64,000 nucleotides of DNA from a virus (Duplodnaviria > Caudoviricetes): the IMG/VR virus record IMGVR_UViG_3300037851_000103, positions 1-64,000 of that record; one strand, 5' to 3'. The number at the start of each line of letters is the position of its first letter. The stretch's first letter is position 1. A program made the position numbers and the translations under genes. Of the stretch, positions 3,190 to 64,000 are shown piece after piece. Under the pieces are notes generated by a model. That model was not told the DNA's origin. It searched no databases and saw only the letters and a list, made by a program, of their open reading frames with translations.

Positions 3190-4362
3190 ATGCGCCCATA
3201 TAGAAAAAAAAGAGAATTAGCGGATTGGATTCGCAGAAAATTAGGTGCACCAATAATAGATGTTTTAATAGACTCTACGCAAATTGACGATTGTATAGAT
3301 CAAGCGTGTGATTTTTTTGGTGAACATGCAGGCGGAACCGGAAACGTTGATAGCATTATTTTAATTAGTCCAGAACCCGTTTTATTTGATGGAACCGGAA
3401 GTCAAACACAACCTGGGCCAAAAGCGGGACGATGGAGAAAAGCAAATACAAATTGCATAGGAACATCAGGAACAAGTGGAACTTCAGCTTGTCCTCCAAA
3501 TAATTGCGGGGCAGTAAATACAGTTAATTTAGCAAAACCATTAGATTCTTGTGTAAATCCTCTCCCAACATTCCAACAAAATGGTGAATGCTGTCCAACT
3601 GATTCTAAATGTCGTGGTCCTGGTTGGTGTGGGGATGGCTATCAAGACCCCCATTGTTTTACGGAAACTGAAAAAGTTGAAATGGATGTTCAAGGTCCGT
3701 ATTGGGTTGAAGGTGATACCTCAGTTAAACCCGCTCGACAAGGATTTGTGTTTAAATCCATTTATGATGTTCCAAGTGATGTAATTGCTATTAAAGAAAG
3801 CCTTGGGGTTGGGTATTATGGGACGAGTGCTTATGGTGCAAATGATGGGGAAGCAATGTTTTCACCTATGCATCTTCTGATACATGGTGGTGGAAATTGG
3901 GGTATGAATTCTCCTACATCTTGGGTTGATAATCGTTATGGGTATTGGCATGGGGCTAATGGCGGATTCGTTGATGTTGTTGGGTGGGAAATGGGAATGC
4001 AATATTTAGAAATGTTTAGAACTTTATATACTACTAAGATGAGCATAACACTTAAAGAATTAGAACATAAAGTACAAGTATCTCCCGCACCATCACAAAA
4101 AGGCGTAATAGCATTCGCTTGTACCAGAAAAGTAGCTGATGAATTTTTATATAACCATCAATGGGTAAGAGAATATGCACAAGCTCTTTGCCTTACCCAA
4201 GTTGGGATGAATGCCGCTAAATATTCTAATTTGACCTTTCCTGGTGGCGGTTCAATAAATGCAGAATTATATCTATCACGGGGCGATACATTACGAGAAA
4301 AATTAGAACAACAAATTGCTGATGGTATGTATAGTGAACCTCCAAATTTTATAATCGGATGA
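3190..4362 (+). CDS. gp13: neck protein, T4 gp13-like, with Cys-rich insertion
   Basis: LADWIRRKLGAPIIDVLIDSTQIDDCIDQACDFF N-terminus and WVREYAQAL...GMNAAKYSNLTFPGGGSINAE C-terminus. GAGG SD. Confidence 0.9.
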   Translation: MRPYRKKRELADWIRRKLGAPIIDVLIDSTQIDDCIDQACDFFGEHAGGTGNVDSIILISPEPVLFDGTGSQTQPGPKAGRWRKANTNCIGTSGTSGTSACPPNNCGAVNTVNLAKPLDSCVNPLPTFQQNGECCPTDSKCRGPGWCGDGYQDPHCFTETEKVEMDVQGPYWVEGDTSVKPARQGFVFKSIYDVPSDVIAIKESLGVGYYGTSAYGANDGEAMFSPMHLLIHGGGNWGMNSPTSWVDNRYGYWHGANGGFVDVVGWEMGMQYLEMFRTLYTTKMSITLKELEHKVQVSPAPSQKGVIAFACTRKVADEFLYNHQWVREYAQALCLTQVGMNAAKYSNLTFPGGGSINAELYLSRGDTLREKLEQQIADGMYSEPPNFIIG

Positions 4363-10598: not shown

Positions 10599-10944
10599 GA
10601 GAAAGTTTACCCAAGTTTTTGATGTTGAAGATTATGATATTTTAACTCCGCAAGGTTGGAAACCTATATCTAAAATAATGGAAACTGTACCATATGATGT
10701 TTGGTATGTCGAATTGGAAAATGGTGATAATTTAAAATGTGCAGACACCCATATATTATACACAGAAAATCACACTCAAATATTTGCTAAAAATATTATT
10801 ATTGGTCAACTTATTGAAACTGATACTGGATATCATAAATGTATTAAATTAGAAAAATTAGATATTCCTCCTGAAAATATGTATGATATTGAAGTTGATT
10901 CAATAGAACATGAATTGTATACAAATAATTTTGTAAGTCACAAT
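10576..10944 (+). mobile_element. split intein C-fragment (IntC, 123 aa)
   Basis: ILTPQGWKPI, LKCADTH (block B), MYDIEV (block F), SHN|T (block G; +1 Thr at 10945). Confidence 0.92.
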
Positions 10945-26446: not shown

Positions 26447-27168
26447 GTAGTTCTGAACCAAATACCATTTTAGAAATTAATGAAAGTCATACTGACAATT
26501 TTATATTAGTCATTCCACATCTTCCCACAACTGTATTTTTAAGTAGTTCATTTCAATCATATACAAAACCCAATTATTTTACCTCAACTGTATCAACTTC
26601 TAGCGGGGAATGTGGTGATGGTCCTGAATTTCAAGGAAATACAACAGGGACCAGTGGAACATCAGGTTCTTGTAATGAAAGTACTGACACTACAAGATCA
26701 AAAATAATAAGAGAAACCAATATTGATTTGCAAAATTTTATGTTGTATTTAACTGATGTAACTTTACCTGATGTTAGCATTGATAAAGTGACTATTGACA
26801 CCCCATTTGCCACATTATCAAGACCTAGAAAAATTAAATTTGGCGATCTTTCTATATCTATGAAAATTTCGGAAAATTTAATAAACTATAATGCAATTTT
26901 ATATTGGTTATATGCGTTACATAATCCTGAAGAATTTAATAAATTAAGTGGCAGAGGAATGATTAAATATTTCTTTCAAGAAGTTTATGTAATAATTAAA
27001 AATAACCACAGAGAAAAAGTAAGTGAATATAAGTTTATTGATGCCTTTCCATATACACTATCCTCATTGCCATTAACCTATAAAGATGCTGAAAATTTAA
27101 AATGCGATGTATTGTGGGGTCATTCAGGTATGGTTCCATCAGATAATTTCGTATTAAAATATGTATAA
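26443..27168 (+). CDS. gp3: tail tube terminator / sheath stabiliser, T4 gp3-like (tube fold)
   Basis: DVTLPDVSI...TPF...KIKFGDLSISMKISENLINYNAILYWL, YKFIDAFP..LS. Could instead be a gp54-like paralog. Confidence 0.7.
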   Translation: MSSSEPNTILEINESHTDNFILVIPHLPTTVFLSSSFQSYTKPNYFTSTVSTSSGECGDGPEFQGNTTGTSGTSGSCNESTDTTRSKIIRETNIDLQNFMLYLTDVTLPDVSIDKVTIDTPFATLSRPRKIKFGDLSISMKISENLINYNAILYWLYALHNPEEFNKLSGRGMIKYFFQEVYVIIKNNHREKVSEYKFIDAFPYTLSSLPLTYKDAENLKCDVLWGHSGMVPSDNFVLKYV

Positions 27169-40400: not shown

Positions 40401-41404
40401 TAGAAGAATTACAAATTACTTATCCAACCACATTAGGAAATAAATTAAGTCAACAATATACATTTGATAATTTTAAAGAAGAATTTGCTTCAACATTACC
40501 TATAAACGGCAATTATGTTGGATTTAGAACATATAATCCAAATACTTATATTTCAAACGTTAACTATCTAATATTTAAACCAAAAGTGTATAAATTTGCA
40601 ACAACCACTGATAATATTTCATTAAATCAATTATTAGTAGAGATAAAAAACAATTTTACCTTATCTAATGATCCAAGCATTAAAAAATATGATGTATCAA
40701 CTGATTTCGTAGAATATATTCAAATTGATGATACCCTTTATTATAGAATTGAAGATAATCCGCCTCAAAAATATATTAATGATATTGAAACTTTTAAAAT
40801 TATAGAAGATAAAGTTTTGATAACTGAAAAAATCAATCCTACTGATGGAGGACTTGGCGTTAATTTGTGGACGAATGGTGAACATACTATAATATGGTCA
40901 TTAGAAAAAGGAACGGATCCGTATAATATTGTTAGAATGTCTGATTTTTTTGATATTATAGATGGTTTAATAAAAGTTGAATTAGTAAGAGGTAATTCAA
41001 CATATACTTGTGAAAGAGATATTGATGATAATCTAGTAGGTTATTTTATCCCAATTAAGGTTGGCGATCAAATAACATTTACCATTGATTTTAGTGATTT
41101 GTCATTAATGTATTTGACTATAGATGACTTGATGAATAAATTGACATTATATGAATTAAATAAATTGCCAATTGATCCATTAAATCCTTATACAACATTT
41201 TCATTAGACGGAAGTGTTGTTAGATATAATAAGAAAATTAGATGCTTTACCACAAGAATGAATACTGAAATTGGAATATTCATAAAAGATAAAACCTTTT
41301 ATTATGATAATGTTTCTAATTTTGAAGAATATACTGATAAAAAAATCCGTGAAATTTATATAAATGATAATAAGCTCAATGTAATTTTTGAGGATATTAC
41401 ATGA
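34427..41404 (+). CDS. giant baseplate wedge protein: PKD domain, gp7/P2 gpI-like segment, PA14-like and ConA-like domains
   Basis: YEWIFGDG...NP...F...GEYQVTL (PKD); LYDIENTPSQFLKYF...LFKEKGSKQSI..FF (gpI/gp7-like); FMVMRGFIKI...GYYNF (PA14-like); two lectin-like repeats ending GYYGFA and GNYVGFRT. Confidence 0.7.
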   Translation: MANYFSANFNYDPSIIFAPQNVNFEDASTVGYIKNDSLTVLVDESDNTLTDLTIDYDTTYANKIEKYEWIFGDGTVSNDQNPKKYFQFSGEYQVTLNIYSEKIFDINTARFYRIKNSKPIILVINLMTVSWLKSHMTPPHINALETNNGFKDLILSTSKMFDNMYKQITDISNLYDIENTPSQFLKYFSETLNHKEFYSKKIGYNCQNATENYESFLNYDIFKKIENNIATEDELKKFRTFLIDTIDLFKEKGSKQSIEDFFKLYDFIITVKDLWTKNFEQTPIAPIEDYFILDPTLENTNNKFKFKGITVLGWNNNLAQFNNNFNALMIDNYHYITKHSYPADVNDDLSTNCLKTFEINNYPPYIYDVQRDDGRSLISDTKKSCEGLEINCTTPLEISCRIDGFAINKNSNYYESNSYNGSLCKIWLAPQNYVSNLLNTIGNIPKNDEERNEIISDTSDDYLWADWKSGATVPPEMVGVSSNAIRVPKFNDILPALNYNSTPSNTNLLHIDTINFSTSTDLFMVMRGFIKIDTQGYYNFILDIGNTNSTLSTQHVGLFSLSNTKYSTLEDIENLNTVDNLVFNRIDGDTSEDVQDGENTVSLTIKNSEYGIIEIRQTDTVKNSEWKYLYPGYYPFELKTTYSSSNIKKLKLSWEMWREEYNSLTTKYHFVNKIITQPIPSNNLWTIKSIEDSIENTQGKGLITIPSEVLEIGESFNISYVQPTTTINYSGILATQNKYKDVEFNIRVSVNNPKIANEIYSDLPHNSFQVLFRGVNLGKDLYADIDSYYALIYNGLTSEFSLAYVSFDKSANIEFYQYLNLNADNTNLDEIVLTKPLLDQYNNTLLLEPNNIYDIKLSVSNNLVSCYFRLNSNYTMIMNNVSNSNTTTLGQFEDTNPYTTIFENITLLQNTEQTQIFDNLGKELDIYNKYVPITDAGYYGFATQKSLINIHKFKIDILDKIDENLSENEDKWQTIKPKYLDSRNNKLLKFNSYENNSINTQQNTVFVYQVTDSYNNNDSVLLSSDLQQVTENSINKVFANDISANNYGTRFNVLLNYDFITNNFKSTEEILDQLIIPFGKFYNPFINWNAIKTDYSSAAHGGYYPILTETTAVYPHTVAISGSNIEYVSTLTRSSDRKSLTLNTKLNTILNIYSNSQFNGVWEEICPNSVSEKWDIYGIGEIDNEVLAPIYRNKNNANTDDAEIIGARLINNEIVKQLICRYCENAIIWALVDIQLPNNAIKNNPTYFNTVSNETIRYFVPIGKLSYENLIYLLPIEILKNNLGKINIVGLYANHSYEGFTFVDNDDNIQINIDVFNYWETKYNNKITCKYYLDVTTSFIGKFAANNIIPIQNHTPQSCEPGTYLEPIETTQCNILPNAFYMPDAISEILKEIESTYTDRSSSEQYIKFEQDYNWWNPNGVWIKQYVESKYDSTKIISGLNQNNNDGITLSLLNNQKLLSANYLVNIDWCVTNVGWDYDYAIGSRNDYNVGSFSPSSTYELIGFELSDTRFLVNKEQLISINNNINATIPLSTVSTSGQSLIQFGKYVNEESNDSQYTLNLYGLFNWYNSHANNDYLTIEDNRVGWHLDDWNDQGKQCIKINNIYAPIPISNYQINKYWSYYQTSIPPFSAITKISFNNYINSISCNDNEIINYNSIITLGSSDENISFYSVPPIVQYYPKWKKLIDYVLLDNYIIPTDYFYISNIDTDYYIKFNNQQFNFEIFNNSKIYIEFYNDVIFNNLEKQLFVDNFDNSRQINWVHFNANTDNHFEIINREPELSLQLTSTVAPYSIINYKNAKAFKLENKSEEINNDKYSGTNNNDKIVGVDNNDGYNNIISLSTIESNNYEYYCDIIFDKELIDNGYEKKFEIILKAENNYNYDSKKYELTDFYFVGIGSFDFDIGFGMRSVQNNEIKETYLASWGEYNTKGVKVDTWYTLKVKITPNEIKVFFNEKFENPRLILNYNTNKKFEKLTDRYLKGQYETLQAILIGLEELQITYPTTLGNKLSQQYTFDNFKEEFASTLPINGNYVGFRTYNPNTYISNVNYLIFKPKVYKFATTTDNISLNQLLVEIKNNFTLSNDPSIKKYDVSTDFVEYIQIDDTLYYRIEDNPPQKYINDIETFKIIEDKVLITEKINPTDGGLGVNLWTNGEHTIIWSLEKGTDPYNIVRMSDFFDIIDGLIKVELVRGNSTYTCERDIDDNLVGYFIPIKVGDQITFTIDFSDLSLMYLTIDDLMNKLTLYELNKLPIDPLNPYTTFSLDGSVVRYNKKIRCFTTRMNTEIGIFIKDKTFYYDNVSNFEEYTDKKIREIYINDNKLNVIFEDIT

Positions 41405-44400
41405 CAAACAGCAATATAACTTTTAATCTCTCAAGAGGTAATGCCTCTAACGATATGCTCGGTATTGGAATTGATTATAATGTTTTTGGAAAATCATTAG
41501 GTGGAATGTTTTTTGATGAAGAGATATTATTAAATAAAGAAATTTATAAACATAAATTATTAGATGGCAATCAAGAAATTTTTGATCCTATTGTTCCAAC
41601 TGATGTAATTAAATCGCAAATTAATTATAGCGCAATCTTTATAACTAATAGAAGTTTTGAAACCTCTATTAGTCTTGATAATATTTCTATAAGTGATGTT
41701 ATTCCAGATTCATTAACAAGTTTTATTCCTGAAGTGACTGGAGCGTTCCCAATTTCTGATATTGATATTGCTATTGAAGGTATGTATACTATTAATGAAG
41801 TAAAAAGAAATATTCCAAATGATTTTGGAAAACCCGCAAATCCATCAATTGTCTTAGATGATGAATTTGATTCAACCCAAAAATTAAATCAATTGGTTTT
41901 TAAAAAAATATTATCTGGCACTGATTTGCCATCTGAAATTCCCCCTAATTGTGTTCTCAAATTATGGCTTAAACGAGAAATTGTTATCACTAAGATGGAT
42001 ATGCCGGAAGATGAATTAGAAGAGTCTGTTAATTTATCTGTAACTGAATCAAATCAAAATATAACAAATTTAAACTTTTCTTATGCAAAATTAAAAGGCA
42101 GAATCCCATTATCAAATTGGTATGATTATACTATTACAAAGGGAACAACTACTTCTATTCAATTAAAAGAATTATTACCAAAAGAGGTTCCTGTCCAAAA
42201 TTATAATATAATCAACACCTTTGTTGTTAATAAAAAAATAGTTCTATTTTATTATGTTGATATTGGTACAACTCAAAATTATTTCTTACTAACCATTAAA
42301 ACACATGATGATGTTAACTATAATAAATATGTTCAAGTTCAATTATTCCCAAATCCGTTCATACCAGATAATGTCAATCTTTATAGTAGAACATTAATTG
42401 ATATTAGAAAATCCTTCTATAATTTTAATGAATTTTATTTGTTTTGGAATGAAAATTTAACTAAAAAAGAAATATGCAACCTACAATTTTTTGGTTATTA
42501 TGAAAAATATACAAGATCAAGCGTAGATCCGTTAGATATTACGGTTTGGACTTCGGATGAAATATTTAATTATACTAATCATGGATTTGATAATAGAAAA
42601 ATAGAAACCTATACTTTAAAAGATTTTAAAGTTATTAGAGATAATATTTTAATAAATAATTTAGAACAATTTGATGATTTGTTTATACTATTTACACAAA
42701 ATACAAAAAATCTTGGATTGATTTCATCTATCGAAAATATTAATCTTAATAAAAATGAATTATTGTATGTCTTTGAAAAAGATATTAAAAATTCTAAAAA
42801 TAATAATTATAATTCTTACCCAGGAATTAATTCACAAGTATTCTCGCAAAGATTATATCCAACATCATTACCAACTATTGATCAAATAACAGTATTAAAT
42901 TATACAAAAAATAAAGATTGTAATATCATTATTAATAATTCATCTACTATTTCTACGACAATTAAAGAACCAAGAAAAATAAAATATTTAGTAGATGGCA
43001 CAAGATATGTTGATTTAAATTCTTTTAATATGAATAGTATTGACGTTAATAAAAATTTTATAACTTATGATTTTCCATCTAATAAAGAAATACATTCTGG
43101 ATATTCATTAACTGCTGGTATTTGTATTAAAAATGATGAAAATATTTATGACTCATTAACAAATGTTTATTTAACAAATTATTCATTAACAAATATAAAA
43201 AATGATATTATTTATCAAAAACCATTATTTCACCAAAATATAGTAGAAGTATCTAATATAAATTCATTATCAATACCTGTTGAATGGGTAAATAGAACTT
43301 ATAAAAATGAATGGAAAACAATTTTAAATACGTTAACTATTATTTCCAAAAATAATAACAATCCTGTATATACGTTGCAATATAATTTTGCTTGTAACGT
43401 TTGGAGATCTATTGTGGTGGATGTAAATGGGGAAGTTCAATATATTTATCATGATGACTATATTAATACGACTAATACTATTAGCACTACAGGATCAGGT
43501 ACATCAGGGGTTCCTATTTATTGTAAATCATTACCAGAAATAGACATAGAAGAATTAAATTGGATTATCGAACCAGATGTTTTCCAACCAGTAACCATTA
43601 AAATTGAACATAAACAAGTATACTCAAATCAATTTCAATTGAATAAATATTTTGTTAACATCCAGGTCTATTTTAAAGGAAATTCAACTCCATTAGTTGA
43701 TGTTTCTACATATACCAATAATCTGTCAAATGTAAGCTATATCGCTTTTAATCATGATTCTCATTTTAATATGAAAATGAATTATTTAGATTTGTTTGAA
43801 AATAATATTGACGATGGGTTCTTATTTAGAATAACAAATCTTCATTTGGCTATCTTACATAAATTAACGGTTGATATAGGAAAAGAATTAACTGTTGATC
43901 CCCAATTATTCCAAAACCAATCATTATTTAAATATTATAGAATTATTAAATTATCAAATCTTAATATTATTAATAATTTAAATAATGATATGACTATTCC
44001 TATTATATTATATGGAAATGGATATAAACAAATTAATGATAATTATAATTCTTTTTTAAGTATAGAAAATCCTTTTGATTTTTCAAAAATTAGGATAAAT
44101 GATACTTCAATAAGAATATACACAGATAATAATAGCACCATTCCAGTAAAATTTAAAATAAGTAAATATGAATATGATAATGATTATTGTGTATTATGGG
44201 TAAGATTGCAAGATATTAGTAAAAATAATTATAAAATATATTTATTTTATGATAAATCGTCAATTGATTATAAAGACGAGATATATGAACAATATAGTTA
44301 TTTAAAAAATAATATTTATTCTCAATCAGCATTAGGTGGCTGGCATATGGATGAATTGATAAAAGATAGTCGTTTATCATATTCAACGGGTCGAATTTTT

Positions 44401-45477
44401 AATGCTGGGGAACCTATAATATATGAGAAATCAGTAAATAATGAGTTACGGTTGACAAAACTTGATAAAGAATATATGTTTGGTATAGCCAAAATATATA
44501 AATCCCATAAATTTAATTTGACGATAGAAGACAAAAATATTGATGATGAAATGTTAGATGATGAAGAAACTAAAAAAGAGTTTGAAACATTTATTCGTGA
44601 TTCTGTGACAATATTTAAGCCAAGTTATACTGAATTGGTCAACATCAAATCCTCTGATATAGCAGTATTGGAAGCAGGAGAAAATTCTATGGGTCTTTCA
44701 AATAATAGAAGAGTAACCGGGTTGATAGCTATGACACCGAATACAAATGTGAATACTTATTATAACAGAGAAGATTTAAGCCAATTCACAATGTTGACAT
44801 CATTTAATGGATTTAGTCAAAACATTGATTGGGTTGTTGCGAAAACTATAGATAGTAGTGTTATTAAAACTGGTGTAATAAAAATAAATGGAAAAGTAAA
44901 AAGTGAAACTATAAGATTTGAAACCCCATTTAAAGATTCTGATTATTTTGTATTTTTCTCAAATCCTAAAAATCAAAAGATTTATTGGAATAGTATGTGT
45001 CCTGATAGATTTACAATTTCTGCTAGTTATTATTTAGAAAAAGAAATATCATGGATGGCATTTCATAGAGATTGTTTTGGTGGTATATATACTCCTGATA
45101 GTATATTTGTTGGTAAGCGTACATTATCTGGAAAAGTGTTTATTGATTCGGATGACAATGAATATACTGAATGGCCAGGAAATGAATTGACTGATATTTC
45201 ATTTCCATCCCCCACAGAAGATAATTTGACATATTGGTATAATAATGAATTGATAATTAAACCTGATTATGGGGTAGAAGGGGATCCTGGTATTATGAAT
45301 ATTGATATTAATGATCCTGGTTATGCTTTAATATTATCTTCAAATCAAAATATAAATATTTATTGGACTAATAAAATGAATAACAAATTTAATATAAAAA
45401 CAAGTAGTCCTAGTGATTGTATTGTTCATTATTTATGTATAAAAAATGGCGTTGAATGGTGGAAAGAAATCATTTAA
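41401..45477 (+). CDS. large baseplate/fibre-associated protein with DUF2341-like domain and H-lectin-like C-terminal modules
   Basis: FDFSKI...IRIY...YCVLWVRL...IYLFYD...GGWHMDE (DUF2341/LamG-type); KPSYT motif at 44617-44631; ATGA overlap. Confidence 0.6.
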   Translation: MTNSNITFNLSRGNASNDMLGIGIDYNVFGKSLGGMFFDEEILLNKEIYKHKLLDGNQEIFDPIVPTDVIKSQINYSAIFITNRSFETSISLDNISISDVIPDSLTSFIPEVTGAFPISDIDIAIEGMYTINEVKRNIPNDFGKPANPSIVLDDEFDSTQKLNQLVFKKILSGTDLPSEIPPNCVLKLWLKREIVITKMDMPEDELEESVNLSVTESNQNITNLNFSYAKLKGRIPLSNWYDYTITKGTTTSIQLKELLPKEVPVQNYNIINTFVVNKKIVLFYYVDIGTTQNYFLLTIKTHDDVNYNKYVQVQLFPNPFIPDNVNLYSRTLIDIRKSFYNFNEFYLFWNENLTKKEICNLQFFGYYEKYTRSSVDPLDITVWTSDEIFNYTNHGFDNRKIETYTLKDFKVIRDNILINNLEQFDDLFILFTQNTKNLGLISSIENINLNKNELLYVFEKDIKNSKNNNYNSYPGINSQVFSQRLYPTSLPTIDQITVLNYTKNKDCNIIINNSSTISTTIKEPRKIKYLVDGTRYVDLNSFNMNSIDVNKNFITYDFPSNKEIHSGYSLTAGICIKNDENIYDSLTNVYLTNYSLTNIKNDIIYQKPLFHQNIVEVSNINSLSIPVEWVNRTYKNEWKTILNTLTIISKNNNNPVYTLQYNFACNVWRSIVVDVNGEVQYIYHDDYINTTNTISTTGSGTSGVPIYCKSLPEIDIEELNWIIEPDVFQPVTIKIEHKQVYSNQFQLNKYFVNIQVYFKGNSTPLVDVSTYTNNLSNVSYIAFNHDSHFNMKMNYLDLFENNIDDGFLFRITNLHLAILHKLTVDIGKELTVDPQLFQNQSLFKYYRIIKLSNLNIINNLNNDMTIPIILYGNGYKQINDNYNSFLSIENPFDFSKIRINDTSIRIYTDNNSTIPVKFKISKYEYDNDYCVLWVRLQDISKNNYKIYLFYDKSSIDYKDEIYEQYSYLKNNIYSQSALGGWHMDELIKDSRLSYSTGRIFNAGEPIIYEKSVNNELRLTKLDKEYMFGIAKIYKSHKFNLTIEDKNIDDEMLDDEETKKEFETFIRDSVTIFKPSYTELVNIKSSDIAVLEAGENSMGLSNNRRVTGLIAMTPNTNVNTYYNREDLSQFTMLTSFNGFSQNIDWVVAKTIDSSVIKTGVIKINGKVKSETIRFETPFKDSDYFVFFSNPKNQKIYWNSMCPDRFTISASYYLEKEISWMAFHRDCFGGIYTPDSIFVGKRTLSGKVFIDSDDNEYTEWPGNELTDISFPSPTEDNLTYWYNNELIIKPDYGVEGDPGIMNIDINDPGYALILSSNQNINIYWTNKMNNKFNIKTSSPSDCIVHYLCIKNGVEWWKEII

Positions 45478-45488
45478 AGGAATAAAAA

Positions 45489-47162
45489 ATGTCAAATGAA
45501 TTTATAGAAGATATTTCCTTGCCAAACGCCAGTTCAAATGTAACTGACGAAAATATTAATATTCCTTTGCAAGAATTGCAAAACAATATTAAATTTATTA
45601 TGAATATACTAACAAATACCTCAATGAGTTCTAATAATTTTTTATCATTTTTATATGGCAATTTATTAGATTATGATGTTACAGGAAAAAAAATATTTTA
45701 TAATGGTGGCAACTTTGATTGTTTTGAAAAGAAACAAATATTTTTATCTGTTAATGATGGCACGATTACTAATGATGTTGATATACAATCAACGGGGGCC
45801 TCAAATCTATTGGTGTATAAAGGTGGGGTATCATATGTAGATTCTGGTGGGGTCGAACATGGTAAATATCTGCAACGGGAATTTTATATTCCTGAAATTC
45901 TTCGTGGGTCTGAATTAATTTTTGCCATTAAAGGAACAGGGGTTAATTTAGTTAATATTGGCGATGATGTTCCATATGATTATACAATACCATACTGCAA
46001 TTCCTCAACCATTCCAAACATAAGTGCGGTTGGCGATCCTCCAATAATAACATTGGGAACCTCTGGAACGTCAGGTACTAGTGGAACCTCTGGAACGTCA
46101 GGCACTAATATCATTGATTTATCAACCGGATGTTATGGAAAATATGAAGATGTTGGGATTGAAATAATAGGAGCAACTGAAACTATTGAAGAAATCATTA
46201 AATTAGGACCATGGCCACATCATGCATTATATGCAAATTCTGAATGGGAACCCGCTTATAGAACATCTATAATAAAATTCAAAGTTGGAAGAAATACGTC
46301 ATCCATAAAACTGAGAATTAGAAGAACAACAGATACGGGAGCATTGGCAATATCACAAATGTTTATAGGAGGTTTGCCGTCAACATATTCAGATTATGAA
46401 TTTACAAATTTAGATATAAATGAATTTTATAATTTTATTGACGGTATAACAAAATGGAATGTTTCTACCGTTTTAGGACACCATGTTTCAAATACTAATA
46501 ATATATATTTGCCAAATTTATTAACCAAAGAACAATGGTTTCATATTTCTCAATTTAATAAAACCATTGAAGAATTTGATTGGGATCAAGAAAATGGCCC
46601 AAGACCAACCTCGTTAATGCTTCCTGAAAGTCCTGCTGCATTAACACCCCAAACCCATGGATTAGAATTTGATCCGTTATTTGACAGATTTTGCTATTTT
46701 GATATGAGAATTGATGGGCCAAATCCAGGGAAATGTTATTTAGGGATTTCATATTTTATCAATAAGAATGAATATTCAGACGATGAAATATGCCCAGATG
46801 ATCTATGCGGAAATATAAAATTTACAGTTATGGTTGCCGTTGTTAATACTTTAGATTATGGAAACCCAACTGAATCTCAATACGAAAAATTTACTTATAT
46901 CGTTCCTATATCATCAACTATTCAAGATGGCAGATTGGCATATTTTGAGATTTATGGGGATTTTTATAAAAATCTAAATGCTTCACGGGGAGCAATAGCG
47001 TATTTTATAATTGGTAGAGAAGGCAATGACACTGTAAATGATACATTTAAAGGAAACTTTATTTTAGTTGGTTGCAAAACCGGCATAGCTGTTCCTCCAG
47101 ATGACATACCAAATACAGGGACATATACCCAATTATTCGTAGGAGATAATAGCAATTGTTAA
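45489..47162 (+). CDS. virion structural protein with (GTS)5 tract
   Basis: 557 aa, AAGGA SD, GTSGTSGTSGTSGTSGT at 46056-46106. Confidence 0.65.
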   Translation: MSNEFIEDISLPNASSNVTDENINIPLQELQNNIKFIMNILTNTSMSSNNFLSFLYGNLLDYDVTGKKIFYNGGNFDCFEKKQIFLSVNDGTITNDVDIQSTGASNLLVYKGGVSYVDSGGVEHGKYLQREFYIPEILRGSELIFAIKGTGVNLVNIGDDVPYDYTIPYCNSSTIPNISAVGDPPIITLGTSGTSGTSGTSGTSGTNIIDLSTGCYGKYEDVGIEIIGATETIEEIIKLGPWPHHALYANSEWEPAYRTSIIKFKVGRNTSSIKLRIRRTTDTGALAISQMFIGGLPSTYSDYEFTNLDINEFYNFIDGITKWNVSTVLGHHVSNTNNIYLPNLLTKEQWFHISQFNKTIEEFDWDQENGPRPTSLMLPESPAALTPQTHGLEFDPLFDRFCYFDMRIDGPNPGKCYLGISYFINKNEYSDDEICPDDLCGNIKFTVMVAVVNTLDYGNPTESQYEKFTYIVPISSTIQDGRLAYFEIYGDFYKNLNASRGAIAYFIIGREGNDTVNDTFKGNFILVGCKTGIAVPPDDIPNTGTYTQLFVGDNSNC

Positions 47163-53342: not shown

Positions 53343-54623
53343 ATGGCAAATAGACCGGAACCGTTTTTAACATCTGGAATTAGTTTGGGAATCCCAACTA
53401 ATAATCCCTTAACTATTGAAAATATTGATAATGCTATATTTTTAGATAGTAATGGGGAAATGCATTTTAAAGATTCTTGGGTTCCAACACAAACTGATAT
53501 TTTCGGAAATATTTTACAAACATTAAAATTAAAAGATTTGTGGACAAAAAATAATGGTGTATATTCTCAAGATGGAAAATTATATTTTAAAGATTCTACC
53601 GTGGATCGTCCTTATAGTTTACAAGAAATGGTACAATCATATAAAGATATAACCAGTAAACTTATTAATGGTGGTATCTATTGGTTAGGCAGAACATCTA
53701 TATCCAATGATGAATGTGAAAATATCATGATTAATATAAATGGCGATAAAAATTTGACTATTAATGATGATGGGGCAAGAATATTTTTAAAAGACACCAA
53801 TGATCAATATAATCAATTTGCCACCGGAACTAAAGTTTTTTCTATTGATAATTATTTAAATAATTTAACAATAACAGATGGGGGAAATAAATTTACCACC
53901 GTTGATGGCCAATTAAGGTGGCATGATGTTCCAAATCATCACATTTTATTACCTCCTATAGATATGAACAAAGCTCTTGCTTTATTTTCAAAACTTTGTA
54001 TAAGACTTATTAAAAATGATACTCCTATTTTATTTAGACTTTATGATGAAACAGCAAATGTTGTTTTAGATCAAATATCAATTAGTAATAATTCAGAAAA
54101 TCCAATGGAACAACAACCAACGTTAACACATTATGGCCAATTACCAACTTATTTAGAACAATTACAACAATTAAAATGTCAATGCCAAAATAATATTACT
54201 GATGAAGAACCGCCTCATATTATTAAAATACAATTCTATACTAATTTTGAATTTAATGATTCGAATGATGATTTGACATATTATTCATATTTAGAAAGAA
54301 GAGTTATTGGGATTCCAAATTCATTAAATGTGACTCCTATAAATAATTCCAGTATTGATTGTATTATTTGGGATACTAATAAAAATGATACAATAGGAAG
54401 AAAAACCGGAAGTGCGGTTTTTAATAATCAAGATTTAATTAATATAACATTTGATAATAATTTTACGTCATCTGAATATTCTATTAATTTATCATGTAAT
54501 AAAAATATAAATGTATTTTGGAATAATAAAAAATCATCTGGATTTTCTATAAAATCAGAAAAGAAATTCACAGGAACCGTGGATTGGATTGCAACAAAAT
54601 TGAAAAATGAAGGTGCCGCATGA
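53343..54623 (+). CDS. virion structural protein with C-terminal H-lectin-like module
   Basis: Ends TGSAVFNNQDLINITF...YSINLSCNKNINVFWNNKKSSGFSI...VDWIAT; AAGGA SD. Confidence 0.65.
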   Translation: MANRPEPFLTSGISLGIPTNNPLTIENIDNAIFLDSNGEMHFKDSWVPTQTDIFGNILQTLKLKDLWTKNNGVYSQDGKLYFKDSTVDRPYSLQEMVQSYKDITSKLINGGIYWLGRTSISNDECENIMININGDKNLTINDDGARIFLKDTNDQYNQFATGTKVFSIDNYLNNLTITDGGNKFTTVDGQLRWHDVPNHHILLPPIDMNKALALFSKLCIRLIKNDTPILFRLYDETANVVLDQISISNNSENPMEQQPTLTHYGQLPTYLEQLQQLKCQCQNNITDEEPPHIIKIQFYTNFEFNDSNDDLTYYSYLERRVIGIPNSLNVTPINNSSIDCIIWDTNKNDTIGRKTGSAVFNNQDLINITFDNNFTSSEYSINLSCNKNINVFWNNKKSSGFSIKSEKKFTGTVDWIATKLKNEGAA

Positions 54624-56203
54624 CAATAGAATCCTTCCAAACTACCGCATTACAAATAGGAAAAATTGTTAGGGCACTAACATCTGACGCCACAGGAAAC
54701 TTAATATTTAGAGACAACCTCAATCCTGATGGGGAAACTCTTTCAAGATTAATTAGTGGTTTGATTTCATCAAATATATCATTTGATTCATCTTCAAATT
54801 TTTATGCTGGTATAACAAATGTTCAAAACGCTTTAGATTTTTTAAATCAATTTGCTTATTTAAAATATACGGCCCGGTTTATTTATGTTGATCCTACTAT
54901 TCCAGCAGAATATGTGGTATCAGGTGATTTATATAATAATATGAACGATGCTATTACTTACGCAAAAACGTTAATAGCAAATGGTTACAATACGATTAAT
55001 ATATTAGCAATGGGAAGTCATAAACAAAATTCATTGGATACCAATTCAGATAATGGGGTATTTACTTTTGATGGAACTGAAGAAATAATATTAGATGTAA
55101 ATGGATTAAATATAATTGGTATTGGGAATCCAATTTTTAGAGTAAATAATTGTAATGGTACAAATATTGTTAGAAAAAATATTTTTAATATTAAAAATAA
55201 CTCAATTAATAAATCTTCAATAGTATTCCAAGATATATCATTCCAATTTGTTAATTCTACTTATACATCATTTATAAAAATAGAAAATGCATCACAATCA
55301 ATAAATGTTAAAGAACGTCATGGAGTTAAAATTATTAACTCTACGATTTCGTTTACTATTGGTTCACAAGATTATAATAGATTGGTTGATTTTGATAATG
55401 ATAGTTCAATAACTCCAACTGATGTGGAAATTGATGGAATATCTATGGGGTCTATTAATAATGTTATACCGTCAGCAAATCCAATTCAGTTACTTCATAT
55501 AAATCATAATTCACAATCTGTAGTTATTGTTAATAATTTAAATACCGCACATTGTCAACAACCGAATGCAGAAGAAAATGAATTAACTACTAATATTACG
55601 TCTCTTGAATATATTAATTGTAAAAAAGGAAAATGTATAATCAATAATTGTGTTTTAGATGAAAAATCCTATTGGATAGGAAACTTAGCATCAAATGTAA
55701 CAACTAAGTTATTAAATGCTGATTCTTCAGATTCTAGAATTTCTATTTTTAATATTGGTATTGTCAGATCTGATTATAATACAAATTATGAAGATAATAC
55801 TGGAATTACATTATTAAAAGATTGGATTGTTCAAACAAATAATGCTGTTGTTAATTCCGTTGGTGGGACTGATGAAATTTATGATATCACAGTTCAATCA
55901 ATTCCCACATCAGGAACAGGAACGTCTGGGTCTTCTGGAACATCCGGTACATCCGGCACACCGGAATTATTTTATAATGTTAAACCAGTTAAATCATTTT
56001 GGAATAAAGATAATATTATTTTTGGACTTGGACATAGAAATGAATTAAGAATTGGAAGTCCTTCAAATGATGATATTAATAATTATTTAAGTAAATATGA
56101 TATAACCAATTATGGAATACCATTTTGGTATAATTCAACCTTAAAGAAATTCCAATTTTTTGATGGAACTTCTGTTCATACAATTGTTTCTGCAACAACT
56201 TAA
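54620..56203 (+). CDS. virion structural protein, probable beta-helix fibre/spike, with GTS tract
   Basis: FIYVDP...YNNMNDAITYA..L..G...I motif that precedes parallel beta-helices; Asn/Ile-rich repeats; TSGTGTSGSSGTSGTSGT at 55907-55960. Confidence 0.55.
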   Translation: MTIESFQTTALQIGKIVRALTSDATGNLIFRDNLNPDGETLSRLISGLISSNISFDSSSNFYAGITNVQNALDFLNQFAYLKYTARFIYVDPTIPAEYVVSGDLYNNMNDAITYAKTLIANGYNTINILAMGSHKQNSLDTNSDNGVFTFDGTEEIILDVNGLNIIGIGNPIFRVNNCNGTNIVRKNIFNIKNNSINKSSIVFQDISFQFVNSTYTSFIKIENASQSINVKERHGVKIINSTISFTIGSQDYNRLVDFDNDSSITPTDVEIDGISMGSINNVIPSANPIQLLHINHNSQSVVIVNNLNTAHCQQPNAEENELTTNITSLEYINCKKGKCIINNCVLDEKSYWIGNLASNVTTKLLNADSSDSRISIFNIGIVRSDYNTNYEDNTGITLLKDWIVQTNNAVVNSVGGTDEIYDITVQSIPTSGTGTSGSSGTSGTSGTPELFYNVKPVKSFWNKDNIIFGLGHRNELRIGSPSNDDINNYLSKYDITNYGIPFWYNSTLKKFQFFDGTSVHTIVSATT

Positions 56204-56874: not shown

Positions 56875-57465
56875 TCAATTTCCTATTATCTGATCCACAA
56901 TATTTAATTTTTTGCAAGTATCAGCATCTAGCCAAACGTCGCGTGCGGGTAATAATTCTTTTTCAATTCTTTTTTTAGTTAATCCCGTACATTCTTGATA
57001 ATGATTTAATAATCTATTATATATTCTATCTAATTCTCTCGTATGATTTTGTAATTCCGTGTGACTTCCGCCTATTTCTGTCGAGAATCTATGTGACATA
57101 AATTGGGTTTTTTTAGTGCAACATCTATAGCCTTTTTCGCCAGCCATAAAAATAATTAATCCTCCTGAACATGCTTGTCCGTAAGCATGACAGTGAACAG
57201 GAGTTTCGATTTCAGAAATAACATCGCATATCATTTGTGAAGCATATAAATCGCCACCTGGACTGTTGATAATTAATTTTATCGGTTTTGGATTTTGTAA
57301 GGTTTTATTTAAATCGTCTATATTATATAACTGTTCAACTATTTCTCTGGAACTATCTATTTTTATTTCCCCTAAAATAAATAACCTAAAAGAACTCCAA
57401 ATATTATAATCATCTATATTATTATCCGGGGAAACTGTGCCTAATTGTATTTCTTGTGCGGTCAT
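56875..57465 (-). CDS. clpP: ClpP-like serine protease
   Basis: LFILGEI, PIKLIINSPGGDLYA, GQACSGG (catalytic Ser), FMSH (His), TGLTKKRIEKE...RDVWL (Asp). Confidence 0.92.
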   Translation of the reverse strand: MTAQEIQLGTVSPDNNIDDYNIWSSFRLFILGEIKIDSSREIVEQLYNIDDLNKTLQNPKPIKLIINSPGGDLYASQMICDVISEIETPVHCHAYGQACSGGLIIFMAGEKGYRCCTKKTQFMSHRFSTEIGGSHTELQNHTRELDRIYNRLLNHYQECTGLTKKRIEKELLPARDVWLDADTCKKLNIVDQIIGN

Positions 57466-58494: not shown

Positions 58495-58502
58495 TATAAA
58501 TA
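58495..58502 (+). promoter_or_regulatory. T4-type late promoter TATAAATA
   Basis: Exact motif upstream of ORF 58536. Confidence 0.7.
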
Positions 58503-60472: not shown

Positions 60473-63400
60473 ATGCCTTGTGAATGCTCTGTTGCAACTA
60501 TTTTAGGTTATTTAAATGCAACTTTGGATAATTTTAATACAATTAAAGATTCTATAATAACAAATTGTCCAACCTGGGCAACGGATTATGATTCTGGAAC
60601 TGCGCTATGGAATGCAAAACAATTTGATCTTGGTACGGGGCAACCATCACCATGCACTTTTCAAAAATATGGGCCAAACTGTATTCTTACTGATCATACC
60701 AATACCTTTACTTTTTATGAAGCAGCTACTTATAATCCAACAGACCAAATAGATTTAAATTGTGATGATGGTACATGCTCTCATTTACCAGATGCTTTAC
60801 TTGTTATAACAGAAGCAATAGAAGCAGTAAATCAATCTATTTGTGAAATATCAGAAGGGGCATTGATAAAACCTGATACTATCAATAGAATTAGAACGGC
60901 AATTGGAAACGTTGCTGATAATTGTATTGTTAGTACAGCATCATCCCCTGAATGTTATGATAATGGTCAATCTGTTGAAGAATTAGAAAGCCCCGAAGAA
61001 TGTTGGACTAAAACAACTTGTTATGACTTATCAATAAAATTTACAACATCTAAAGGGACTAATCCTAATGATTGTGATTGTGATGCGGGTGATTGTGAAG
61101 GAGTATTAGAAGATTGTTCAACGAGAGTAAACAGTGGTGATTATTTTTCCATCAAACATTTTTCGGAATTGGTTTCTGAATCTGGAAAATTAACGGGGAA
61201 ACAATATTGCTGGTGTTGTAATACCGGATCTTCTAGCTCATCTTCAATGTCATCTTCATCTTCAAATTCTTCAAGTTCGTCTAATTCCTCGTCTTCTTCA
61301 TCAAAATCATCTTCTAGTTCATCATCTTCAAGATCATCATCCTCAAGTTCATCATCAAAATCATCTAGTTCATCCTCTTCAAGTGGTCCAAGTTCATCAT
61401 CCTCAAGTTCTTCTAAATCATCTTCTAGTTCATCATCCTCAAGTTCTTCTAAATCATCTTCTAGTTCATCTTCTTCTGCTGTATCATCTTCTAGTTCCTC
61501 TTCTAGTTCATCATTATCATCGTCATCAAAATCTTCAAGCTCTAGTGCAACTAATTGTTGTATTTATAATGGGCCATATACCGATGTTGTATTATCAACT
61601 TTGGGAGCGGGACCATTTTATTGCGGAACCTCACATGAATTAGACTCTGGATATACAAGTTGTAATACTATTCCCTATCAAGATTATTGGGCGTTAGATA
61701 TTTATAGTGGGTTAATTTCTTCGCATCCATTTTCAATTGATACCGAAAATCCTTCTTGTATTGGGCTATTTAAAGCTGTTGAAATATTTTTTAAACGAGA
61801 AGATGGTTTGGAAGAAACCATATCCATAACAGAACTAGATTCAAATAATGAGTATGGTTTTATTATGGGACAGTGCCCTAATGGCGATATTCCAACCCCG
61901 TCTGCCTTTATTTACAATAATCCATTATATGCTAAAAAATTAGAAATTACAAGACTTAGATTTTATGTATATGATGGGGTTTCATTTCAACCAGTATGTC
62001 AGTCTTATCAAGACTGTTCGATAATAATAGAATCTACTGAAAACGTATGCAATTCAGAGTATGAAATAGGAATAGAGACTGCTATTTATTGTGATATTTC
62101 TGATATTCCTGCTTGTTTTAATATATCTTCGTCATCATCATCAAATTCATCGTTATCCTCTAATTCATCTTCGTCATCTTCTAAATCATCTTCTTCTTCC
62201 CATTCATCATTATCATCTTCTAAATCTTCTAAATCATCATCTTCTTCTAGTAATCATGTAAGTTCTAAATCTCCTACTATGACAATTAAAATTCCAGATA
62301 GTAATTTGTGTGGAATATGTCCGTCTAATTTATCGTTGACTTTAACTATTTATTATTTAGTCGATAACATATATGTTCCGTGGACTGGAAATATTGAAAG
62401 TAAAGATTGTTTAGGAGTTTATTATTGGGTTGTGCATGAATTAGAAGATTGTACTACCTATAAAATAATATTGGACGGGTCAGTTTCAACAACCCAAGGA
62501 TGCGGTGATATCACGTTCCATGGCGAACGGTATGTTCAAGTATTATGTGATTGCCCCACAATGTCATCTTCAAAATCATCAAGTTCTTCAAAATCATCAA
62601 GTTCTTCTAAATCATCATCAAGTTCTTCTAAATCATCTAGATCATCATCTTCATCATCCTCAAGCTCTTCTAAATCATCCTCTAAATCATCATCATCCTC
62701 TAAATCATCTTCAACCTCATCTAGTTCATCATCAATTTCATCGTCAAAATCATCATCTTCTAGCTCATCTTCAAAATCTTCTAGTTCTTCACGATCATCA
62801 TCTAAATCCTCTGCATCATCAAGATCATCTTCAAAATCATCAAGATCATCATCTTCAAAATCTTCAAGTTCTAGCGCAAATTCTTATAATTATTCAACTC
62901 CTGGGGTCTATACATTGGAAGTTCCGTCAGGGGTTTCTAATTTAATAGTTATTACAGTTGGTGGTGGTGGTGGCGGTAACGGATCCTCATATTCCGGTGG
63001 TTCTGGTTACGGTATTGTCGGGAGTGGTGCCGGTGCGGGTGAAATAAATAACTCGTCAACTATTTCAGTAACGCCAAGTCAAGTATTATATATTTATGTT
63101 GGGGCCGGAGGTCTTGGAGGGTGTGCAACCCATAAAGTAACATGTACTCCCCCTGATCCTGGGTTTAAAGAAAAAGGTTATGCGGGTGAAGATACCTATG
63201 TTAGATTGAATGATAGCCCATTTACTGAATTTTGTAGATCTGCTGGCGGAAATGCTGGTTCTTCGCAAACGGTAGGGGGGGTTGGTGGGACTGGAAATGG
63301 GGGGACTGCTGGGGCTAATGGGGGAAATGGATATAATCCATTATCAAGTGGTACTTGGTCGGGGCCATTAGGCGGAACAAATGCCCAATATTCTTCATAT

Positions 63401-63496
63401 GGTAAAGGTGGGGATGGGTCATCAATAACAACGGGGACATATGAAGAGGATGGTGAGGATGGAACCGGAGGATATGTAAGTATTCAATTATTTTAA
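60473..63496 (+). CDS. poly-serine, Cys-rich virion/fibre-like protein with C-terminal glycine-rich domain
   Basis: Three Ser tracts separate Cys-rich domains; C-terminal YSTPGVYTLEVPSGVSNLIVITVGGGGGG glycine-rich domain typical of phage fibre tips; GAGGA SD. Confidence 0.8.
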   Translation: MPCECSVATILGYLNATLDNFNTIKDSIITNCPTWATDYDSGTALWNAKQFDLGTGQPSPCTFQKYGPNCILTDHTNTFTFYEAATYNPTDQIDLNCDDGTCSHLPDALLVITEAIEAVNQSICEISEGALIKPDTINRIRTAIGNVADNCIVSTASSPECYDNGQSVEELESPEECWTKTTCYDLSIKFTTSKGTNPNDCDCDAGDCEGVLEDCSTRVNSGDYFSIKHFSELVSESGKLTGKQYCWCCNTGSSSSSSMSSSSSNSSSSSNSSSSSSKSSSSSSSSRSSSSSSSSKSSSSSSSSGPSSSSSSSSKSSSSSSSSSSSKSSSSSSSSAVSSSSSSSSSSLSSSSKSSSSSATNCCIYNGPYTDVVLSTLGAGPFYCGTSHELDSGYTSCNTIPYQDYWALDIYSGLISSHPFSIDTENPSCIGLFKAVEIFFKREDGLEETISITELDSNNEYGFIMGQCPNGDIPTPSAFIYNNPLYAKKLEITRLRFYVYDGVSFQPVCQSYQDCSIIIESTENVCNSEYEIGIETAIYCDISDIPACFNISSSSSSNSSLSSNSSSSSSKSSSSSHSSLSSSKSSKSSSSSSNHVSSKSPTMTIKIPDSNLCGICPSNLSLTLTIYYLVDNIYVPWTGNIESKDCLGVYYWVVHELEDCTTYKIILDGSVSTTQGCGDITFHGERYVQVLCDCPTMSSSKSSSSSKSSSSSKSSSSSSKSSRSSSSSSSSSSKSSSKSSSSSKSSSTSSSSSSISSSKSSSSSSSSKSSSSSRSSSKSSASSRSSSKSSRSSSSKSSSSSANSYNYSTPGVYTLEVPSGVSNLIVITVGGGGGGNGSSYSGGSGYGIVGSGAGAGEINNSSTISVTPSQVLYIYVGAGGLGGCATHKVTCTPPDPGFKEKGYAGEDTYVRLNDSPFTEFCRSAGGNAGSSQTVGGVGGTGNGGTAGANGGNGYNPLSSGTWSGPLGGTNAQYSSYGKGGDGSSITTGTYEEDGEDGTGGYVSIQLF
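61229..61546 (+). repeat. poly-Ser tract 1 (about 106 aa), includes exact 36-nt tandem duplication at 61391-61462
   Basis: Mixed TCT/TCA/TCC/TCG/AGT/AGC codons punctuated mostly by Lys; AGTTCATCATCCTCAAGTTCTTCTAAATCATCTTCT x2. Confidence 0.95.
62126..62272 (+). repeat. poly-Ser tract 2 (about 49 aa)
   Basis: SSSSSSNSSLSSNSSSSSSKSSSSSHSSLSSSKSSKSSSSSSNHVSSKS. Confidence 0.93.
62564..62875 (+). repeat. poly-Ser tract 3 (about 104 aa)
   Basis: Ser runs punctuated by K and R every 3-11 residues. Confidence 0.95.
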
Positions 63497-63510
63497 TTTT
63501 TTTCATAATT

Positions 63511-63519
63511 TGCTATAAT
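63511..63519 (+). promoter_or_regulatory. extended -10 promoter TG-C-TATAAT, probably giving a leaderless mRNA
   Basis: The motif ends 6 nt before ATG 63526; no SD present. Confidence 0.5.
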
Positions 63520-63525
63520 TTAATT

Positions 63526-64000
63526 ATGAGAAAAGTAATTTTGAAAAATCATCAAAGTCCTGGTGATTTAGTAATGTTGTCTGCTTTGGTAAGAGATATT
63601 CAAAAATGTTGCCCTGGACAATATCAAGTTGATTTAGATGTAACATGTAAAGAAATTTTTGAAAATAATCCATATATTACTAAATTAAATCCAAAAGATC
63701 CAGATATTATAAAAATAAATGCAGATTATAATTTAATTCATGATAGCAATAGACGCCCATTTCATTTTATTCATGGATTTATTCAAGATTTTAATGAAAA
63801 AATGGATGAAAAGATATATCCAACTGAATTTAAGGGTGATATTCATTTATCTGGTGATGAAAAAGTATGGTATTCACAAGTTTACGAATTAATTGGAAAA
63901 GATGTTCCCTATTGGATTGTTGTATCTGGTGGGAAACATGATTATACTGCTAAATGGTGGAATCATAATAAATTGCAACAAGTAATTAATTATTTTAAAG
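63526..64000 (+). CDS. glycosyltransferase family 9-like (heptosyltransferase-type GT-B), 3'-truncated (not in ORF track)
   Basis: MRKVILKNHQSPGDLVMLSALVRDIQKCCP...EIFENNPYITKL...YWIVVSGGKHDYTAKWW matches the GT9 GD..., NP.I and IV..G.....K.W motifs; the frame is open to the window end. Confidence 0.8.
   Translation, partial: MRKVILKNHQSPGDLVMLSALVRDIQKCCPGQYQVDLDVTCKEIFENNPYITKLNPKDPDIIKINADYNLIHDSNRRPFHFIHGFIQDFNEKMDEKIYPTEFKGDIHLSGDEKVWYSQVYELIGKDVPYWIVVSGGKHDYTAKWWNHNKLQQVINYFK

Follow-up and report, generated by a model that had tools for sequence, protein, structure and literature searches.

What does a glycosyltransferase (GT) act on when, in the genome of a tailed phage, its gene stands directly behind a gene for a protein with long serine tracts? 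The question is raised by the far end of a 64,000-base stretch of viral DNA (the window), which comprises the first 64,000 bases of IMG/VR record IMGVR_UViG_3300037851_000103, so that window and record coordinates are identical. The record is linear, 84,103 bp long and has a GC content of 23-35%; from its CheckV completeness of 38% a genome size of about 220 kb is derived. A preliminary description of the window had proposed that the phage O-glycosylates its own virion proteins, and had named modification of host lipopolysaccharide (LPS) as the alternative. We believe that the phage probably sugar-coats its own particle, the proposed acceptor being the poly-Ser protein and the proposed Ser-tract transferase the GT9-fold enzyme encoded next to it (coordinates of all features are given in Table 1).

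The preliminary description had noticed a GT9-like open reading frame (ORF) that starts 29 nt after the poly-Ser gene (63497-63525), on the same strand, and is still open at the window end. The rest of the record completes it: the full ORF of 318 aa matches PF01075 (Glyco_transf_9) with 27.1 bits against a gathering score of 22, and the 158 aa within the window give no Pfam match by themselves. The AlphaFold2 model (predicted local distance difference test score 87) has a GT9 fold. It matches GT9 structures with Z-scores of 23.9 (3TOV), 21.1 (1PSW, WaaF), 20.3 (2H1H, WaaC) and 19.6 (4RB4, TibC), the next fold class reaching at most 11.2, and in Foldseek the E-values to GT9 structures were 3e-12 to 4e-9. 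The model is also matched, with Z of ~17, by subunits of the chloroplast NDH-photosystem I (NDH-PSI) supercomplex (9GRX chain 1, 7WFF chain a, 7F9O chain 6), which places a GT9-like fold inside a plant photosynthetic complex.

Homologues number 3281 proteins at E ≤ 0.001, most of them ~50% identical; the nearest, at 67% identity, lie on a 66.7-kb contig. The clade is marked by four invariant motifs, an N-terminal SPGD, GGK.D.T.KWW, AGGRE..W and CC..GGCW. Residues S11-P12-G13-D14 are invariant in 27 of 27 members, and HMMER aligns SPGD to 'VGD' of WaaF; the GD and K-W motifs are invariant or almost so, and a loop-rich insertion in the C-lobe carries five invariant Cys (256, 257, 262, 282 and 297). 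Asp13 of WaaC, which we take to be the catalytic Asp of the N-lobe 'GD', would be the counterpart of Asp14 in the clade. The N-lobe catalytic Asp of TibC is Asp110 (PMC4358343).

The preliminary description had pointed to the related Aah/TibC enzymes, but the enzyme is not a member of that family. The enzyme has no N-terminal β-barrel but begins at Rossmann strand 1, and the model aligns to residues 96-392 of TibC only. A clade profile built from 27 members and run against all PDB chains found WaaF only, at E 0.15, and TibC was not reported at E ≤ 1, so the family placement rests on the fold. Against the NCBIfam model for LPS heptosyltransferase II (WaaF, TIGR02195) the protein scores 17.8 bits, the cut-off being 134.6. 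Because it lacks the β-barrel and a sequence match to TibC, lies far below the LPS cut-off and does not have the canonical 'DSGxxH' motif, we conclude that the clade is a distinct GT9-fold family, neither LPS heptosyltransferase nor TibC/Aah-type, whose donor is not readable from sequence.

In the poly-Ser protein, three tracts of 73-85% Ser each alternate with Cys-containing domains, and the C-terminal Gly_rich_2 domain is of a type found chiefly in phage proteins (atlas clusters mainly Uroviricota). Searches of PHROGs gave no match for this protein, nor for four large neighbouring proteins; its Gly-rich C-terminus had no tblastn match in 50,697 GenBank phages, although the low-complexity filter may hide matches. 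The protein is probably a fibre or decoration protein. Further tracts had been noted upstream, as (GTS)n repeats in virion proteins, and these are present: runs of at least eight residues drawn from G, T and S, 8-18 residues long, occur in five other structural-module proteins, where a rough estimate from composition leads one to expect ~0.04. In both the Ser and the GTS tracts, synonymous codons are mixed in about genome-wide proportions. This indicates that the tracts are maintained by selection on the protein, and for the same reason replication slippage was rejected as their origin.

The link between enzyme and tract extends well beyond this phage, as the preliminary description had anticipated in looking for co-occurrence of the GT clade with poly-Ser genes. 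Members of the clade occur on no fewer than 124 IMG/VR contigs and in 536 or more species of bacteria, the latter among Verrucomicrobiota, Planctomycetota, Acidobacteriota, Gemmatimonadota and Eremiobacterota, and including the cultured genera Paraburkholderia and Caballeronia. Cultured carriers are Paraburkholderia phymatum (locus L146) and Caballeronia telluris (locus L097), among others. A tblastn search of the 50,697 GenBank phages with the GT9 sequence gave no match, and a search for viral loci with this single sequence found nothing, an alignment being needed as query. We called ORFs in 80 viral and 80 bacterial GT9 loci, 10 kb to each side, and scored as poly-Ser any ORF containing a 30-aa window with at least 60% Ser. 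In the viral loci (39 clusters at 70% GT9 identity) there were 20.8 poly-Ser ORFs per 100 kb within 0.5 kb of GT9, compared with 0.9-2.8 beyond 2 kb; in the bacterial loci the corresponding figures were 16.5 and 0-3.5. The density is thus ~10-fold higher close to GT9 in viral and bacterial loci alike. Control regions, 58 sheath-anchored myovirus loci totalling 665 kb, contained 1.5 poly-Ser ORFs per 100 kb, all of them short antisense frames. Measured from the tract itself, a Ser tract lay within 1.5 kb of GT9 in 18/80 viral and 19/80 bacterial loci, and the nearest tract was more than 4 kb away in nine loci only.

On a tree built from 161 GT9 domains, having a poly-Ser neighbour must have changed at least 24 times, so the association is not the quirk of one lineage. 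The phage partners are small tail-region proteins with Ser tails; among the bacterial ones are a protease, a metalloprotease and an esterase-like protein, as well as an RHS protein and a DUF6519 β-helix protein. Because these partners are mutually unrelated, the Ser tract itself is the feature they have in common. In many viral loci GT9 is the sole member of this phage's sugar cassette (described below) beside the poly-Ser ORF, which points to GT9 as the tract-specific enzyme. Among other observations in these loci, Pkinase Ser/Thr kinases adjoin GT9 in 5 of 139 flanking ORFs of the bacterial loci L085-L164, and zinc-ribbon proteins do so in four. In one viral locus (L014:7799-11317) two GT9 domains are fused to an FkbM methyltransferase and, at the C-terminus, to an Erv1/ALR sulfhydryl oxidase; the gene for this 1172-aa protein adjoins one for a Cys-rich protein that has a poly-Ser tail.

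A search with the tail sheath retrieved a near-complete relative, IMGVR_UViG_3300026088_000010 (G001; L226-L239), of 262,529 bp, 97% completeness and 35.9% GC. Synteny with this phage extends over the whole structural module, whose proteins are 25-63% identical between the two. Past the same short minus-strand block, G001 encodes a 1261-aa fibre (r63) with 24% Ser, whose N-terminus is homologous to that of the collagen-like fibre encoded before the poly-Ser gene, the remainder consisting of Ser-rich linkers that alternate with Cys-containing modules. This linker-module unit is repeated ~8 times, with a recurring 'Y..C.T..W' pattern in the modules. Behind the fibre gene follow a small gene, a GT9-like gene and a member of the clade at 53% identity, and none of the remaining cassette genes was found anywhere in G001. 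Because these are the elements that G001 keeps, we regard a Ser-rich fibre with GT9-type enzymes as the conserved core. Of the five (GTS)n positions, four have S/T/P/G-rich linkers in the G001 orthologues as well, the tail-tube tract being confined to this phage.

The preliminary description had expected more sugar genes beyond position 64,000. Nine tightly packed plus-strand genes do follow GT9, making a cassette of ten proteins with it, and HldD- and HldE-like genes are among them, which fits heptose. Both of these genes are full length, and heptose-pathway models are far ahead of any other model for their products. The HldE-like protein matches NF008454 with E 2.5e-88 (residues 5-429 on model positions 7-439 of 475; 296.8 bits, below the cut-off of 521), and every named homologue at 34-44% identity is HldE; for the HldD-like protein TIGR02197 is by far the top match (E 1.3e-65; 221.7 bits, below the cut-off of 274.6). 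The ten proteins contain no convincing membrane segment, two borderline peaks being Rossmann core strands, and no flippase, polymerase, ligase or priming transferase (Wzx, Wzy, WaaL) was found in the cassette. The GT4, GT2 and GT8-like genes adjoin GT9 in 11-13 of the 80 viral loci; together with HldE they look like add-ons to the core of Ser-rich fibre and GT9.

Timing is suggested by the T4-type late-promoter motif TATAAATA. Thirteen of its 25 plus-strand copies lie 5-60 nt upstream of plus-strand ORF starts (~2 expected), compared with 7.6% for all-AT 8-mers; it is this placement, with strong enrichment ahead of structural genes, that stands out, the overall count not being enriched. It suggests that this distant, very AT-rich T4-like phage has late transcription of the T4 type. 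The copy before the collagen-like fibre gene is likely to be the start of a late transcript that runs into the poly-Ser and GT9 genes, which follow after gaps of 14 nt (fibre to poly-Ser) and 29 nt. A terminator scan found no terminator-like site in the cassette; sigma-70-like promoter sites were fewer than in shuffled sequence, and the scan is uninformative save for the lack of terminators. From the placement of the motif, the short gaps and the lack of a terminator we infer that the cassette is co-transcribed late with the virion genes.

On balance we favour cytoplasmic O-glycosylation of Ser tracts on virion fibres by a late-expressed, phage-encoded system, a reading that would account for the soluble enzymes and the late context as well as for adjacency and synteny. 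Before tail fibres are assembled, or while they are being assembled, the soluble GT9-fold enzyme would recognize the homopolymeric Ser tracts of the adjoining fibre-type protein in the host cytoplasm and would put the first sugar on Ser hydroxyls, with the invariant Asp14 of 'SPGD' as the presumed catalytic base. The GT4, GT2, GT8-like and second GT9-like enzymes might then lengthen the glycan, and the two methyltransferases might cap it. The HldE- and HldD-like enzymes would boost the supply of ADP-L-glycero-β-D-manno-heptose for at least one GT9-type transferase, GmhA and GmhB being supplied by the host or encoded in the unsequenced 62% of the genome. A distal virion protein would in this way acquire spacers that are sugar-coated and mucin-like, and the short S/T/G linkers of other virion proteins may be modified as well. 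Whether the same holds for the clade at large seems to us evenly poised: its members would be widespread cytoplasmic protein O-glycosyltransferases that read homopolymeric Ser as a portable tag and turn poly-Ser linkers, in phage fibres and in bacterial secreted proteins, into mucin-like glycan brushes, the present phage adding a full tailoring set and a virus-encoded supply of ADP-heptose.

The acceptor, the order of the steps, the identity of the sugar, the timing and the benefit to the phage are what we infer; what was observed is gene content, fold, conservation, the positional link to poly-Ser ORFs, synteny and promoter motifs. Several points weigh against this reading. The canonical GT9 C-lobe motif 'DSGxxH' is replaced by 'PVTxLMH' across the clade, the consensus 'CPVTxLMHLAAA' aligning to 'NDSGLMHVAAA' of WaaF, and the donor and chemistry may for this reason differ from those of known heptosyltransferases; nor is heptose established as the sugar moved by GT9, for the same reason. 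An HldE homologue is found near GT9 in only three of the 80 viral loci, and GmhA (TIGR00441) and GmhB (TIGR00213) were not found in the 84-kb record, which is 38% complete, so that the phage may still encode them in the remaining 62% of its genome. The place of the poly-Ser protein in the virion is suggested by gene order and the Gly_rich_2 domain, without a PHROG match, and bulky glycans on the G/T/S tract of the tail tube seem unlikely. In more than half of the loci no poly-Ser ORF lies inside 10 kb, and ORF calling is crude in the high-GC bacterial loci. Fibre genes and GT cargo could both collect in the variable regions after tail modules, which would inflate the adjacency in phages. Finally, a large viral subclade (L035-L068) has no poly-Ser neighbour. 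In that subclade GT9 is preceded by proteins of 500-730 aa in which methyltransferase, GT-A and canonical GT9 ('GVDSGPMH') modules are fused.

The cassette might instead remodel the host, modifying the LPS core or another envelope glycan and so blocking superinfection or releasing progeny from receptors, with the poly-Ser gene a mere neighbour. We think this unlikely, but some points speak for it. GT9 enzymes of known function are mainly LPS heptosyltransferases, WaaF and WaaC are among the closest folds, and LPS and O-antigen clusters typically contain HldD/HldE, GT2, GT4 and sugar methyltransferases. Soluble enzymes would be enough, since the cytoplasmic face is where the LPS core is assembled. 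However, the score against the LPS heptosyltransferase II model is very low, and Wzx, Wzy, WaaL and a priming transferase are missing. The neighbours of ~75 bacterial homologues are Methyltransf_24, GT-A enzymes, a second GT9 and GT2, families also present in this cassette, and no LPS-core family (Kdo, lipid A or core) is among the 25 commonest neighbour families, in a tally that left out six ORFs of more than 1000 aa. The late-promoter motifs stand in a structural operon, and host remodelling leaves unexplained both the poly-Ser link in many lineages and its conservation in G001. Of the choice between virion proteins and LPS put forward in the preliminary description, the virion side is thus favoured by late-promoter motifs, lack of export machinery and non-LPS bacterial neighbours; its heptose did not fare as well, given the motif replacement and the rarity of HldE described above.

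A still less probable reading is that the GT9 clade has another kind of acceptor, for instance a small molecule, a polysaccharide or a different protein feature. The Ser tracts would then be plain spacers, brought next to GT9 by shared variable cargo regions. Poly-Ser linkers are generally regarded as flexible spacers in secreted enzymes, and most loci have no poly-Ser ORF; the clade lacks the canonical sugar-binding DSG motif, and its neighbours are heterogeneous. Against this, poly-Ser density falls steeply with distance inside the same loci, in viruses and bacteria, few poly-Ser ORFs occur in the control structural regions of phages, and partners as unrelated as small tail proteins, proteases, RHS and β-helix proteins share the tract.

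T4-like phages classically glucosylate their DNA. A role of these GTs in putting heptose or other sugars on 5-hydroxymethylpyrimidines of phage DNA is nevertheless very improbable, even though phage DNA-hypermodification clusters pair a heptose-activation pathway with a GT-B enzyme that places mono- or di-heptose on 5-hydroxymethylcytosine (Pyle et al., bioRxiv 10.1101/2023.12.21.572611): those clusters use a T4 β-GT-like enzyme together with hydroxymethyl-forming enzymes, whereas here the fold is GT9, no thymidylate-synthase-type hydroxymethylase (PF00303) was found in the 84 kb (38% of the genome) or in G001, which has the GT9 pair, Tet/JBP (Tet_JBP) was not found in G001 in a search that had no positive control, the clade is common in bacterial chromosomes beside secreted-protein genes, and the late-promoter context suits virion genes rather than replication genes.

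Table 1. Features of the phage record discussed in the text (positions in record coordinates, identical to those of the window up to 64,000).
Feature	Position	Strand	Remarks
(GTS)3 tract in neck/adaptor-like protein (3190-4362)	3460..3486	+	G/T/S tract at same place in G001 orthologue
Sheath stabiliser	7270-8472	+	T4-type structural module
Large terminase	10558-12372	+	T4-type structural module
Tail sheath	12484-14478	+	phrog_23, E 1e-99
Tail tube	26443-27168	+	phrog_45
TTGTSGTSGS tract in tail-tube protein (26443-27168)	26641..26670	+	Insertion relative to G001 orthologue
gp5-type hub	28658-30346	+	T4-type structural module
gp6-type wedge	30778-34383	+	T4-type structural module
STTGSGTSG tract in 1358-aa baseplate/fibre-region protein (41401-45477)	43483..43509	+	
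(GTS)5-6 tract in 557-aa baseplate/fibre-region protein (45489-47162)	46056..46106	+	
18-residue G/T/S tract in 527-aa baseplate/fibre-region protein (54620-56203)	55907..55960	+	
T4-type late-promoter motif TATAAATA	58495..58502	+	34 nt before collagen-like fibre gene
Collagen-like tail-fibre protein, 640 aa	58536..60458	+	PF01391 Collagen, E 2.3e-9; ~20 PHROG tail-fibre families
Poly-Ser protein, 1007 aa, 28% Ser	60473..63496	+	Proposed acceptor
Ser tract 1, aa 253-360	61229..61552	+	85% Ser
Ser tract 2, aa 552-595	62126..62257	+	
Ser tract 3, aa 698-803	62564..62881	+	
C-terminal Gly_rich_2 domain, aa 809-1000	62897..63472	+	PF21722, E 5.9e-6, above gathering score
GT9-fold glycosyltransferase, 318 aa	63526-64482 (158 aa in window: 63526..64000)	+	Proposed Ser-tract transferase
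TATAAATA motif	64452-64459	+	20 nt before GT4
GT4	64479-65516	+	
GT2	65513-66319	+	
Phage-specific GT-A protein, GT8-like	66312-67118	+	Closest structural neighbours GT8
Methyltransf_24 enzyme	67115-67795	+	
Short second GT9-like protein	67767-68486	+	Only this one keeps 'DSG' motif
FkbM methyltransferase	68479-69393	+	
Protein with weak DUF7796-like match	69397-70239	+	
HldD-like epimerase	70267-71175	+	
HldE-like bifunctional kinase/adenylyltransferase	71156-72511	+	

To judge from its genes, the uncultured phage is a distant T4-like jumbo myovirus, because it has a T4-type structural module and its sheath is ~32% identical to the sheaths of cyanomyoviruses. A eukaryotic giant virus was considered and rejected, since the terminase, sheath, tube, gp5/gp6-type baseplate genes and T4 late promoters are those of a tailed phage. 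No tRNA gene was found in the 64-kb window. In the minus-strand block between the fibre genes, a 196-aa ORF (56875-57465, minus strand) resembles a ClpP-type serine protease by eye and has no homologue in G001. Beyond the sugar cassette, a minus-strand block (72508-76817) encodes a SEC-C-motif protein, an SprT-like protease and an RlaP-type nucleotidyltransferase. Farther along the record, the plus strand (78433-80140) encodes a response-regulator-like protein (weak match) and, directly after it, a histidine kinase (HATPase_c, E 1e-10; HisKA). Such a two-component pair is unusual for a phage genome.

If the proposed system exists, poly-Ser linkers, usually seen as inert, would be glycosylation tags read by an enzyme family common to phages and many bacterial phyla. 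Virion glycosylation would extend beyond a few actinobacteriophages to environmental jumbo myoviruses, where it would bear on receptor binding, particle stability and evasion of proteases or host defences. Phage auxiliary genes of 'LPS type', such as HldE and heptosyltransferases, would then be reassigned from host remodelling to self-decoration, and a Ser tract together with the enzyme could provide a simple glycosylation tag that is genetically encodable. Both GT9-fold serine glycosylation and the glycosylation of phage virions are already known in kind; in the literature searched there was no paper on this GT9 clade or on a phage poly-Ser glycosylation system.

Among known systems, long Ser-rich repeats are the substrate in the Gram-positive Ser-rich-repeat and Ser-Asp-repeat adhesins, which are modified in the cytoplasm by GT-B enzymes encoded nearby (GtfA/B, SdgA/SdgB). 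SdgA is also the top NCBIfam match of the cassette GT4, a very weak one (33 bits against a cut-off of 800). The adhesin systems differ in that their initiators are GT4/GT8 enzymes, whereas here the fold is GT9, the setting is viral and there is no accessory Sec system. In mycobacteriophages, according to the account of Freeman et al. (2023) given in PMC12619734, glycans are carried at the C-termini of capsid and tail-tube subunits. As far as that account goes, phage GTs near structural genes are common to both systems, the glycans on virion proteins being observed there and predicted here from the genes; the enzyme families differ, as do the hosts, which are actinobacterial there, and here a fibre-type protein whose poly-Ser tracts are internal is proposed as the acceptor, and the phage has nucleotide-heptose steps of its own. 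In the Moraphage lineage, for which Bacteroidota hosts are predicted, there are four core GT groups and structural genes of T4 type (PMC12619734).

With WaaC, WaaF and an uncharacterized Veillonella GT9 (2H1H, 1PSW and 3TOV), its top structural matches, the enzyme has the Pfam family and the GD and K-W motifs in common. It differs in falling far under the equivalog cut-off, in having 'PVTxLMH' for 'DSGxxH', in its extra Cys-rich insertion and in the lack of an LPS gene context. The nearest functional parallel lies in the autotransporter heptosyltransferases TibC and AAH (PDB 4RAP/4RB4), cytoplasmic GT9-fold enzymes that heptosylate serines before export (PMC4358343). The GT9-type GT-B core is common to both (Z 19.6, rmsd 3.0 over 263 residues), as would be a soluble cytoplasmic enzyme (predicted here), an N-lobe Asp as candidate base, a gene adjoining that of the proposed protein substrate, and Ser as acceptor (proposed here). 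The Cys-rich C-lobe insertion of the clade, near the C-terminus, recalls by analogy the iron finger of TibC, in which Cys339, 342, 358 and 370 bind Fe (PMC4358343). Unlike TibC and AAH, however, the clade enzyme lacks the N-terminal β-barrel and detectable sequence kinship, and it is structurally no closer to TibC than to WaaC or WaaF. The acceptor of TibC and AAH is a set of β-helix repeats, whereas here homopolymeric Ser tracts are proposed, and the GT9 of this locus is borne by a phage and accompanied by elongating GTs and methyltransferases.

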